Positions 14,521 through 57,984 of a DNA stretch of 60,576 nucleotides are shown in pieces (the first letter of the stretch is position 1; every line of letters begins with the position of its first letter). Source of the DNA: Candidatus Micrarchaeota archaeon (GTDB lineage Archaea; Micrarchaeota; Micrarchaeia; Anstonellales; Bilamarchaeaceae); the NCBI GenBank assembly GCA_038046765.1, contig JBBSVN010000008.1, forward strand, positions 1 to 60,576, in the 5' to 3' direction. Under the pieces are notes generated by a model that did no database searches, was not told the DNA's origin, and saw only the letters and a program-made list of their open reading frames with translations. A program made the position numbers and the translations under genes.

Positions 14521-14660
14521 TCCAGAGAACTTTGTTCTCGATCCCTTCAAATTCAAAGAATTTGCAGATCTTTAGAACGAACCGTCGTTCTAAAGTATTA
14601 GAAAAGCCCTTCTGGCCTTTTCTAAATCGGCATTACTTATTTGATTCAGTATAATGCCGT
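14521..14660. mobile_element. Hairpin cluster containing a 58-bp double-hairpin element (14569-14626)
   Basis: TCTTTAGAA-x-TTCTAAAGTATTAGAAAA-y-TTTTCTAAA shared with 57704-57761; further flanking hairpins. Confidence 0.7.
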
Positions 14661-45621: not shown

Positions 45622-45779
45622 CCGAGTCAACTTAAAAAAGTCGACTCGATCTATGTCGAGAACGGCAGTAAAGCCTTCTCGAGCATGTTCGCGAACCCCT
45701 CTGGTGTTCGCGACATTCAGAACCAAATATATAAGAACTAAGCTCAAACAATCGAGATTACTTAGTTGGTTCTGAATAG
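45622..45779. mobile_element. Hairpin cluster with a 62-bp double-hairpin element (45654-45715) inserted in a longer stem
   Basis: TG-TCGAGAA-x-TTCTCGA-GCATGT-TCGCGAAC-y-GTTCGCGA-CA; its removal gives the 14-bp stem CTATTCAGAACCAA/TTGGTTCTGAATAG. Confidence 0.75.
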
Positions 45780-51993: not shown

Positions 51994-53337
51994 TTAAATT
52001 AATTCTCCAAATAAACTTCCGTAATTACTTTTAATAATTTTAACTTTACAAAATTCGCCTAGTTCTCCAGTAAAATCCTTGACTACGACCTGTTTGTAAT
52101 TAATGTTCCTACCTGTGTAATCCTTGTTCTTTCCATCTTGCTTTTCGGTTATCAAAACTTCGTATTCTTGACCAACAAATCTCTCATTTTTCCTTTCAAC
52201 AATTTCTAAAACAAGTTTAGTTAAAAGTGCGCTTCTTCGCTTTACTTCTTTATTGTCGATTGCCTTTAGTAATGCTGCCTTTGTTCCTTTTCTAGATGAA
52301 AACTTTGAAATGTTTACAATATCAAGTTCAAGTTCTTTTATCATTTTATATGTATCTTCAAAATCCTCTTCTGTTTCAGTTGGGTAACCAACAATAATAT
52401 CTGTTGCAATCGTTACATCTGGACTTTCTTTTCTAATTGATTTTATAATTTCTATAAAATCAGCGACCGTATGGTCACGGTTCATTTCTTTGCAAACCTT
52501 TTCGCTACCGCTTTGAACTGGGACGTGTATAAATTTGTAAAACCGTTCGCCTTTAAGTTCGTTAATTATTTTATCCTTCATCCTCTGGATATGGTCTGGG
52601 TTTGCCATTCCAAGACGAACGTAAAATCTTTCTTTTGTGTGTTCGAGAAGATGATTCTTCTCGACATGGATCGAGACCGGCAAATTTCCTGGTCTGGGTA
52701 TATCTATATTATTTATTTTTTCCATTAGAAATCCTAAGTTAGTTTTAATATCTGCTCCATATGCTCCAGCATCCATGCTTGTCATTTGCACTTCTTTTGC
52801 ACCATGTTCTACTGCATGACGTATTGCATAAATTACGCCATCAACTGAAAAACTTCGAAGCCTTGGTCTTGCTAATTTAGTCTGGCAAAAATTACAAAAA
52901 CTTAAACATCCTTCGCTTATTGGTAAACGCAATATTGGCGCGCTAAAAAACTTCGGCAATCCTTCTTTTTTTAGTGAATCGCGAAATTCTAATGGTTCGT
53001 TCCTAAAAGCTGCATCAACTGCTAAATCAATTTTTGATATTGCACCCGCCCAGACGATTGGAGAAAAAGGTAAGTTCTTTCGTATTTTGGCAGTATTAAC
53101 GCTTAAGCATCCAGCCACAACTACCTTTTTTCCTTGCGTTTTAAGTTCGCGCATTTTTTGCAAGATTCGGCTTTCTGTTGCGCCTTTTACTGTGCACGTA
53201 TTAAGTATAATCAGTTCGCTATCGGTTTCACTCTGGCTTATCTCATATCCTTTTTCATAAAGGATTCCTTTCATCATGTCGCTATCTGCCTGGTTAAGAG
53301 TACAGCCATACGTTAGTATAAAAACAGATTTTTTCAT
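51994..53337 (-). CDS. mtaB: tRNA t6A methylthiotransferase (MtaB/CDKAL1-like) with a roughly 20-aa palindrome-encoded insert
   Basis: TYGC..N..DS, LNTCTV, EGCLSFCNFC, HVPVQSGS, TDIIVGYP.ET, TRAM domain. Confidence 0.9.
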   Translation of the reverse strand: MKKSVFILTYGCTLNQADSDMMKGILYEKGYEISQSETDSELIILNTCTVKGATESRILQKMRELKTQGKKVVVAGCLSVNTAKIRKNLPFSPIVWAGAISKIDLAVDAAFRNEPLEFRDSLKKEGLPKFFSAPILRLPISEGCLSFCNFCQTKLARPRLRSFSVDGVIYAIRHAVEHGAKEVQMTSMDAGAYGADIKTNLGFLMEKINNIDIPRPGNLPVSIHVEKNHLLEHTKERFYVRLGMANPDHIQRMKDKIINELKGERFYKFIHVPVQSGSEKVCKEMNRDHTVADFIEIIKSIRKESPDVTIATDIIVGYPTETEEDFEDTYKMIKELELDIVNISKFSSRKGTKAALLKAIDNKEVKRRSALLTKLVLEIVERKNERFVGQEYEVLITEKQDGKNKDYTGRNINYKQVVVKDFTGELGEFCKVKIIKSNYGSLFGELI

Positions 53338-56732: not shown

Positions 56733-56747
56733 TTGATACTCCTTTTT

Positions 56748-57197
56748 ATGAACTGGAAATCCCATGTTATTATCGGCTGTTTACTTACTCTTGCTATATT
56801 TCTTTTCCTATTTAATATACGCGATTACGCTACGCTAATCGTTCTAACAATATTTGGTGGGTTAAGCGCGCTACTTCCAGACTTGGATCATGATTTAAGT
56901 AAAGGTAGGAAAATACTGAATGTTTTTGTTATACTAGGTTCAATACTTTTCTTTGTATTTTTTTCAAATTCTTATAGTTTACAAAATTCCCTTACATACC
57001 CCTTAGCAGTAGTCGGAATTTATTTTATTCTATTTGCCTTTTTTAAACCAAGACATCGGGGTGTTACGCATTCGATAGTTTTTGCAGTAAGTTATGGTAT
57101 AATTCTGTTCTTCCTAGCCGGAATTGATTTTGCTGTTGCCGGTTTTATCGGGTACTTTTCGCATTTACTGGCTGACGGAATGATAAAAATAATTTAA
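56748..57197 (+). CDS. Membrane metal-dependent hydrolase (YdjM-like)
   Basis: M...SH, LLPDLD, HRGVTHS, SHLLAD. Confidence 0.88.
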   Translation: MNWKSHVIIGCLLTLAIFLFLFNIRDYATLIVLTIFGGLSALLPDLDHDLSKGRKILNVFVILGSILFFVFFSNSYSLQNSLTYPLAVVGIYFILFAFFKPRHRGVTHSIVFAVSYGIILFFLAGIDFAVAGFIGYFSHLLADGMIKII

Positions 57198-57233
57198 ATC
57201 TAGTGGATTCCAACCCGTCTATTTGACTGGTGG

Positions 57234-57799
57234 TGTCGTAAACCTAAACTTTCGCAAACACCTTTTAACTACGTCGGACGAAAAACGAGTTTTCACTAAA
57301 TCACGTTTATGTAGTTGCCACTACATTTGTTATCGACGCAAGCGAAAATCGCTTACGAGAATGCGCGAATTTCAATTTGCGAAATTTGGGTCGTAAACAC
57401 TAGAGGGTTCACGAGCATACTCGTGATGTAGAGAACAGCAACAGCGTTCTCGAACATGTTCGTAATCCATCTGTTGATTACGACATCGTTGCGAAGATCG
57501 TGACATCTGTCAAACTGCTCAAGCGAGGAGGCCGAGCAATGTCGTGAAAACGCTTCTTCGCGACATTTAGAAAAAAGATTCGTCTTTTTTCTAATACTTT
57601 AGATGTCAAGAAGAGGAACACCCTTGTAGAGAAGACCAGAGGGTTTCTCTATCATGATCATGAACCCTGCTGGTGTTCATGACATCTTGATCATGATCGA
57701 GAATCTTTAGAAAGAATCGTCTTTCTAAAGTATTAGAAAAATCATAAAGGATTTTTCTAAATCCCAAAGATTCTCGACAACGACGTTTCGTTCTCAAGA
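57234..57799. mobile_element. Nested cluster of 58-60 bp double-hairpin elements
   Basis: Six reconstructable copies: 57389-57505 contains 57427-57485; 57566-57799 contains 57604-57779, which contains 57625-57684 and 57704-57761; degenerate hairpins lie upstream. Confidence 0.8.
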
Positions 57800-57984
57800 T
57801 GGGGACTCTTTGTTCACATTGATTTTATGGATAAAAAATGTTGGGCTTAAGGTTTTAAATAGTTCGATTATTCTACTTGCTTTAAATCTGATTTTTATAG
57901 TCGTAGTTGGCTTTTTTAAATATTTATTCAAATATTTCCCCTCCAAAATAAAGATTTAAAAAGCTTTTCCTAGTTTATACTGCT

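Follow-up and report, generated by a model that had tools for sequence, protein, structure and literature searches.

The question raised by this locus is how hairpins came to lie inside other hairpins in one intergenic block of a Micrarchaeota genome, and what placed them there. The window, that is the whole stretch of DNA analysed, is 60,576 nucleotides long and is contig C8 of the source genome (G000; 1.52 Mb, 89.7% complete); other contigs of this genome are designated C#, comparison genomes G### and labelled comparison loci L###. The nest extends from about 57200 to 57800 and starts after a stop codon; its neighbours are a gene for YdjM at 56733-57197 and, from 57985, one for a long beta-helix surface protein. 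It consists of four TG...CA units, two units of a second family (TTTAG...AAGA), a solo hairpin, a true MITE and an outer hairpin host. These features and the other copies in the window are listed below, with the strand where one was assigned.

57200-57233 and 57506-57539: outermost host, recognised from the fold of the remainder; the next unit lies in the loop of its first hairpin
57234-57505: TG...CA unit F, exactly 58 nt with TG...CA ends after removal of two inserts
57242-57391: classical MITE of 150 bp with terminal inverted repeats, unrelated to the units
57427-57485: TG...CA unit E, 59 nt, lodged in F (second hairpin, 5' arm); 54.6 bits
57540-57565: solo TG-hairpin-CA with mismatched arms; a similar solo lies in L144
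57566-57799, plus strand: TTTAG...AAGA unit D, 58 nt without its insert; inserted at a CA/TG step (a slash marks a junction)
57604-57779: TG...CA unit C, 58 nt without A and B; in the second hairpin of D
57625-57684: TG...CA unit A, 60 nt, in the first hairpin of C; 56 bits
57704-57761, minus strand: TTTAG...AAGA unit B, 58 nt, in the second hairpin of C
14569-14626, minus strand: free-standing TTTAG...AAGA unit, recognised by folding and sequence
45654-45715: TG...CA unit of 62 nt, 57.6 bits, between two hairpins of a third family
52611-52666: decayed TG...CA unit, 27.4 bits, beside a third-family hairpin

The first-pass annotation had described units A to E, C and D as the remainders left after excision, and the free-standing copy at 14569. 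These are composed as claimed, with two hairpins each; four of them and the copy at 45654 have folding z-scores of -4.5 to -8.6, and none of 200 shuffles was as stable. They do not form the single family proposed: the units at 57234, 57427, 57604 and 57625 are of the TG...CA type, and those at 57566 and, reversed, at 57704 and 14569 are of the TTTAG...AAGA type. The 58-nt TG...CA host proposed for unit E exists, but it starts at 57234 and not at 57389, and is interrupted by the 150-bp MITE. Missing from the inventory were the solo hairpin, the outer host and the copies at 45654 and 52611. Restoration of a stem does not by itself fix a boundary, as an 8-bp stem is restored by 32 of the 1,683 deletions of 58-60 nt that the block allows; element boundaries were fixed by the conserved ends and by copies outside the nest.

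Unit F is the oldest unit, is partly decayed and has a weak dumbbell fold (-0.3 kcal/mol). The insertion site of unit E is recurrent and was also used at G000:C7:14081, L106, L114, L127 and L139. Unit A recurs almost unchanged, and in the same nested setting, at G000:C6:115070-115168 (92.9% over 99 nt), and unit B is 95.5% identical over 67 nt to G000:C14:152-218. The solo hairpin is probably an internal deletion product of a full unit. The hairpins of the outermost host resemble, by eye and unscored, a decayed IS200/IS605-type end such as those of L141, L174 and L245. The MITE is flanked by a 5-bp target duplication (57237-57241, 57392-57396), and its second copy, in the region G000:C19:14771-14911, has a 5-bp duplication of its own; the nest thus sets a true MITE beside duplication-free units. 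With a third member at C3:24738-24933, this MITE family has inverted ends and a length of 140-200 bp, and two of its three full copies carry the 5-bp duplication. A second nest in the source genome (G000:C6:115015-115168) repeats the nested order of window 57586-57684, with 92.9% identity over 99 nt, which suggests from the two sequences that composites may be copied as a block. The decayed unit at 52611-52666 lies inside the reading frame of a radical-SAM methylthiotransferase (51997-53337, minus strand), which has 17 extra residues at the hairpin elements (window 52560-52700) compared with the orthologue in G079.

The nest is real and is not an assembly artefact. A second sample of the first study (run X2) has three overlapping contigs that together span it entirely, and two further studies have contigs that agree with it, at 0-1 differences, over 57237-57578 and over 57298-57455 plus 57485-57674; the artefact that had been named as a possible refutation is thereby set aside by contigs of three studies. 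No empty allele of the nest was present in any run (four contig sets; assembled contigs drop rare variants), nor was a circle or excision product seen in assembled contigs.

The units are members of a dispersed family. In the source genome a motif scan found 18 paired units; three Markov-3 simulations gave 0, 1 and 1. Of the TG...CA family there are 18 copies in the genome, 16 of them intact after iterative excision and two interrupted, and of the TTTAG...AAGA family there are seven. Iterative excision over all loci then included gave 101 distinct TG...CA copies. A covariance model built from 55 copies matched 45 of the 99 genomes of the family Bilamarchaeaceae, in 14 of 23 genera, and one of 77 genomes of the order outside that family; the covariance-model scan recommended in the first-pass annotation therefore found the element in the source genome and in its relatives. 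The distribution is patchy within genera, with 25 of 40 genomes of one genus carrying the element. A metagenome scan gave at least 121 loci, more than half of which are true copies and the others fortuitous matches in DNA of high GC content; stricter patterns, which exclude two common arm variants, undercount the family at no fewer than 10 loci and at least 7 of 401 genomes. Viral contigs gave 0 and 5 pattern matches, all five of which are not true copies, and plasmids gave no match to the element. Copies were also observed on two contigs labelled Methanosarcinales (L065, L069).

At least four more double-hairpin families share loci and nest with the TG...CA family. Double-hairpin families with other cores, at least five of them, were observed at L114, L121, L125, L153, L167, L324 and L434-L439, and several of these sister families insert exactly at the central CA/TG of TG...CA units.

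The consensus of the element is TG-hairpin-N-CA/TG-N-hairpin-CA. On either strand two short pairings are available, each with a single bulged base: the TG at the 5' end with the CA of the centre, and the CA at the 3' end with the TG of the centre. The folded element is thus a rod, invariant in its middle, with closed loops at its tips and the two ends side by side at its centre, a nicked dumbbell of about 27 bp with two 7-11-bp arms around a 6-nt spacer and bulges on one strand only. The hairpin foot is TGTC in 53 of 55 aligned copies. In this alignment 97% of cells are paired. Changes on both sides are seen in 16 of 24 pairs, and almost all of them are Watson-Crick. The pairing covariation was reached in none of 500 shuffles, a count that is not a probability as the copies are related and were preselected for hairpins, and lay above all slid controls. 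The linear dumbbell fold is within 0.4 kcal/mol of the minimum in four of five window units, and the circular minimum-energy fold is the dumbbell in four of five, the decayed unit F being the exception.

Invariant pairs prove nothing about the pairing of ends with the centre, and variants were therefore examined. The centre is TG in all but 13 of 148 distinct elements; seven of the 13 were set aside (other families at the centre, or unclear make-up). In L403 and L165 (CG with CG) and in L127 (CA with TG) the centre and the terminal dinucleotide have changed together, and in all three the boundaries are fixed independently by the restored host. One variant of a single genome (L016/L026) breaks the end-centre pair, and L171 is ambiguous, so that end and centre have co-changed in three of four informative variants. 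The bulge base is C, which would blur the register, in one of 190 ends. A sister family in G273 has, by eye, the same layout around a GCGC core. We conclude that the ends of the element are defined by pairing with its own centre. The end-centre pairing that gives a nicked dumbbell is new here.

Insertion was studied at 62 independent sites, obtained by merging copies with similar flanks. The ends are TG...CA at 59 of these sites, although ends formed part of the copy filter; in the motif scan, which had no rule on ends, both were present in 11 of 12 TG...CA copies. The length is 52-61 nt, with 58 nt at 30 of the 62 sites, and reaches 62 nt in the window copy at 45654. A target duplication of at least 4 bp occurs at none of the 62 sites, and one of 2 bp at three. 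Filled and empty sites could be paired: L114 with L092 in one genome, L040 with the homologous tnpA leaders of L038 and L039, and L141 and L066 with L041. For sister families entering the TG...CA centre, the filled site L117 pairs with the empty L113, and L153, L160, L169 and L202 with L164 and L177. The empty alleles proposed as a check thus exist at other loci, but not in the nest contigs. Insertion is precise and without duplication, copies are dispersed, and hairpins are the targets; the earlier description of a minimal, non-autonomous and nested family inserting without target duplication is borne out.

That the units might not be mobile, and represent a structured non-coding RNA, terminators or an assembly artefact, carries almost no probability. 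An intergenic position after a stop codon would suit such features. The nest sequence has no match in Rfam, it recurs in the contigs of three studies, other copies are inserted in coding and transposon sequence, and the filled and empty pairs refute this explanation.

The rule for the target is one of structure, met by hairpins of many kinds, with little rule of sequence. An A adjoins the end in 87 of 124 ends, and G stands at -2 in 54 of 124. Sixteen empty sites of the source genome have a median folding z-score of -3.6, compared with -0.39 for 60 random intergenic stretches (p=1.3e-5). Only 6 of the 202 ends of the 101 copies lie behind the family's own arm, and the preference for its own hairpins that had been inferred from the nest gives way to a general use of hairpins, including those of sister families, the ends of IS200/IS605 elements and the RNA region of a diversity-generating system (DGR). 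IS200/IS605 elements supply many of the targets: copies lie in or at their end hairpins in L165, L401 (at the apex of the left-end hairpin) and L403, and elsewhere in such elements in L040, L141, L400 and L402. Among 41 Y1 loci, a strong copy lies within 1.5 kb of three, and a weak one within that distance of two. The copy at L400:1520-1577 lies in the 3' end of tnpB, where it alters the end of the protein and cuts the gene short; this part of tnpB usually encodes the guide-RNA scaffold.

In G079 two copies lie between the target gene and the reverse transcriptase gene of a DGR. With this arrangement, two reverse transcriptase loci in the source genome and one in G079, movement through RNA copied by a DGR-type reverse transcriptase was considered and is very improbable. 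Changes in the stems are almost all Watson-Crick swaps, both strands fold alike, no pattern directed at adenines was noticed, and the DGR RNA region counts as one structured target among others.

The bases at the junctions were also compared. The flanks read A/T on neither, one or both sides at 3, 31 and 28 sites; independence is not rejected (p=0.19), and these counts do not separate single-strand from double-strand insertion, the one-sided rule of single-strand insertion being absent. No element base predicted a target base after 54 tests, the best complementary trend having an uncorrected p of 0.023. A two-base AT core with heteroduplex inheritance, in the style of serine recombinases, was rejected because the mismatches lie outside the element (TG...CA at 59 of 62 sites).

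The reading preferred here is that these are non-autonomous elements of 52-62 nt whose movement takes place in folded single-stranded form, by means of an HUH/Y1-type enzyme acting in trans (peel-and-paste). It is held at about even odds, with a probability near 0.5, because the enzyme is missing. An enzyme similar to the Y1 TnpA of IS200/IS605 would bind the rod on single-stranded DNA and cut at the junctions, mostly A/T, freeing a circle. This circle would be a closed dumbbell and would be joined into another single strand bearing a hairpin. Base pairing between the cut site, which lies 3' of the last hairpin, and the nucleotides on the 5' side of that hairpin would follow the guide-directed cleavage logic of IS200/IS605 and REP elements. 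A preference for hairpins would build nests and disable IS200/IS605 ends, and the enzyme gene would not need to stay in the genome. The reading rests on the lack of duplication, the hairpin targets, the bulged stems and the cut site paired to bases 5' of the hairpin. Against it, the distance from hairpin to cut site is 2 nt only; in IS608 ends it is longer. Pairing that guides cleavage, recognition of bulges and the marks of single-strand transposition are described for HUH systems in the available text of PMC8266576.

The source genome has no match to profiles of Y1, tyrosine integrase, serine resolvase, TnpB or IS110, which extends to the assembly the earlier statement that the window contains no transposase. 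Neither a Y1 gene nor a relic was found with a local Y1 profile in six frames of this 89.7% complete genome, nor a Y1 gene in G079 (93% complete). Among the 99 family genomes, Y1 is present in 15 of the 45 that carry the element and in 10 of the 54 that do not (Fisher p=0.11), and 30 of the 45 carriers are without a Y1 match. The proposed link to HUH/Y1 enzymes is the best reading but an unproven one, with no gene in the source genome and a weak co-occurrence. A transposase or RAYT flanked by the same hairpins, also suggested at first, did not emerge: the Y1 genes beside copies are those of IS200-type elements into which a copy has inserted, and these elements have their own ends. Ordinary IS200 ends, different from those of the TG...CA element, bound the adjacent tnpA genes and are themselves invaded by small double hairpins; at 11 tnpA loci the ends differ from those of the element. 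All four Y1 proteins tested score as IS200/IS605 transposases and fall under the RAYT cut-off. As far as the available text of PMC6006769 reports, subclass 1.1 is the sole Y1 group in Archaea, and it is of the IS200 type.

All eight host genomes of one subclade of solo IS200-type tnpA carry the element, a subclade that was chosen after viewing the tree and is absent from G000 and G079. Of its five next relatives (the four closest outside the family and the sister G004), only G273 has weak matches, to the sister family. Solo IS200-type tnpA genes at L036-L040, L047, L147, L265, L267 and L409 were seen to have in common a branched, conserved leader ahead of the start codon and to end in a QxxLxxF(F/Y)-like motif, the pattern of the PCNA-binding PIP box. 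In the source genome an HUH-like motif is present in the orphan gene C5:142875, which has no usable database match. Subtraction of the non-carrier G187 from the genes common to G000 and G079 was uninformative, as it left 283, with 947 kb of the approximately 1.5 Mb of G187 compared.

Alternatively, the mover could be a tyrosine recombinase for which the folded circle serves as a core site with two arms and extrahelical bases; integron integrases and XerC/D act on folded single strands. Two arms of 7-11 bp around a 6-nt spacer, with bulges on one strand, would fit such a site, and integrase genes occur in 60 of the 99 family genomes. Their presence is not associated with that of the element (28 carriers with and 17 without, 32 non-carriers with and 22 without; p=0.84), the break is at the centre of the spacer and not at its edge, the targets share at most one base with it, and the source genome has no such gene. 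A tyrosine recombinase is accordingly improbable. Not even a XerA-like tyrosine recombinase matched in the source genome, which may be due to incompleteness. TnpB likewise shows no co-occurrence with the element in the 99 genomes (p=0.84).

Five of the 45 carriers, the source genome included, have no match to Y1, TnpB or integrase, and the source genome also lacks resolvase and IS110. At the replication fork, host enzymes that act on hairpins and junctions (structure-specific nucleases, ligase, type IA topoisomerase) could then release and re-insert the dumbbell, which would accord with targets that are hairpins of any kind. Specific recognition is indicated instead by the constant length, the invariant ends and the existence of several families that differ in their cores; the distribution is patchy within genera, and incomplete assemblies often lose mobile genes. 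Movement by host enzymes alone is unlikely for these reasons.

The absence of five common recombinase and transposase families from the source genome would also fit an enzyme of an untested or undescribed family, for example from a virus, a plasmid or the host cell of the symbiont, and the mobiliser of the SMR-A elements of Haloquadratum walsbyi is called likewise enigmatic in the available text of PMC3119063. Against this, no autonomous copy was found among 15 unpaired halves, no other recurrent mobile-element protein family lies beside the copies in 187 loci, and viral contigs and plasmids gave no true copy. An enzyme of this kind has a small probability, and the HUH/Y1-type enzyme acting in trans remains the preferred reading.

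SMR-A of Haloquadratum is the closest precedent for the behaviour. According to the available text of PMC3119063, SMR-A elements are about 110 bp long and SMR-B elements down to 80 bp, copies of a type are usually more than 95% identical, and SMR-A has inverted terminal repeats unrelated to transposons, makes no duplication and targets near-terminal IS605 palindromes. Like SMR-A, the TG...CA elements are archaeal and non-coding, have inverted ends, make no duplication (none of at least 4 bp at 62 sites) and hit the end palindromes of IS605-type elements. They differ in entering other targets as well, in a length of 52-62 nt instead of about 110 bp, in loops and stems that vary freely while pairing is kept, and in nesting in each other, a comparison in which SMR is known by description alone.

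REPIN, REP and BIME elements with RAYT are described in the available parts of PMC3116915, PMC8266576 and PMC3733652. Shared with REPINs are two short palindromes in inverted order, the extragenic position, mosaic clusters and bulged stems. REPs of the CGTC type, sometimes TGTC, are also without a known transposase in the parts of the REP literature available (PMC3116915, PMC3733652). The TG...CA units have no GTAG or GGAG tag and a TGTC foot instead (53 of 55 copies), their halves are not separated by a spacer, their ends pair with the centre, the host is archaeal and its genome has no RAYT, insofar as REPINs are covered by these sources.

IS200/IS605 elements and PATEs resemble the family in their end hairpins and in the lack of duplication. 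A cut site paired to bases 5' of a hairpin may be a further likeness: the right end of the TG...CA element pairs and co-varies with the centre in three of four informative variants, and the target side shows no significant link. The ends of the TG...CA elements are, however, two-fold symmetric with hairpins 2 nt from the ends, there is no fixed one-sided target of 4-5 nt but only the A at -1 and the weak G at -2, and the hairpin sequence is unlike that of the local IS ends, which are its targets. MITEs of DDE transposons likewise have terminal inverted repeats starting with TG and ending with CA, but the TG...CA family lacks a duplication of 4 bp or more at its 62 sites and conserves structure, not sequence.

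No published description of the TG...CA family or of the end-centre pairing was found in the literature searched, which did not include most subscription journals. The suggestion that the elements are undescribed therefore holds for the family, whereas its behaviour has a precedent in SMR-A, as far as the latter is described in the available text of PMC3119063. The TG...CA family is a real, widespread and previously unnamed family of minimal mobile elements akin to SMR and REPIN, with a new structural rule. It may, more tentatively, stand for a class of its own among minimal mobile DNAs, widespread among small archaea and defined by geometry rather than sequence, a transposon parasite and the general form behind SMR-A. 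Such a class would borrow an HUH enzyme or use an undescribed one and would land in IS200/IS605 ends, and the end-centre rule would let ends be reprogrammed for scarless insertion. At half the size of SMR-A and with more than 100 variants, the family offers a testable rule for the definition of ends, and a 58-nt oligonucleotide and a few candidate enzymes bring the question of the mover to the bench. The elements also reshape tiny genomes: a tnpB is shortened, transposon ends and the DGR RNA region are occupied, and a tRNA-modifying enzyme is lengthened.

The DGR-type reverse transcriptase genes mentioned above were recognised by motifs and neighbouring genes, with no profile scan, at G000 C4:70756-71978 and C4:12217-13307 (minus strand) and at L317:14804-15954 (G079). 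Each of them is split into two frames at the same place, in a GA-repeat tract in G000 and in a C run in G079, and the split may be a phase-variable or frameshift switch on the DGR.
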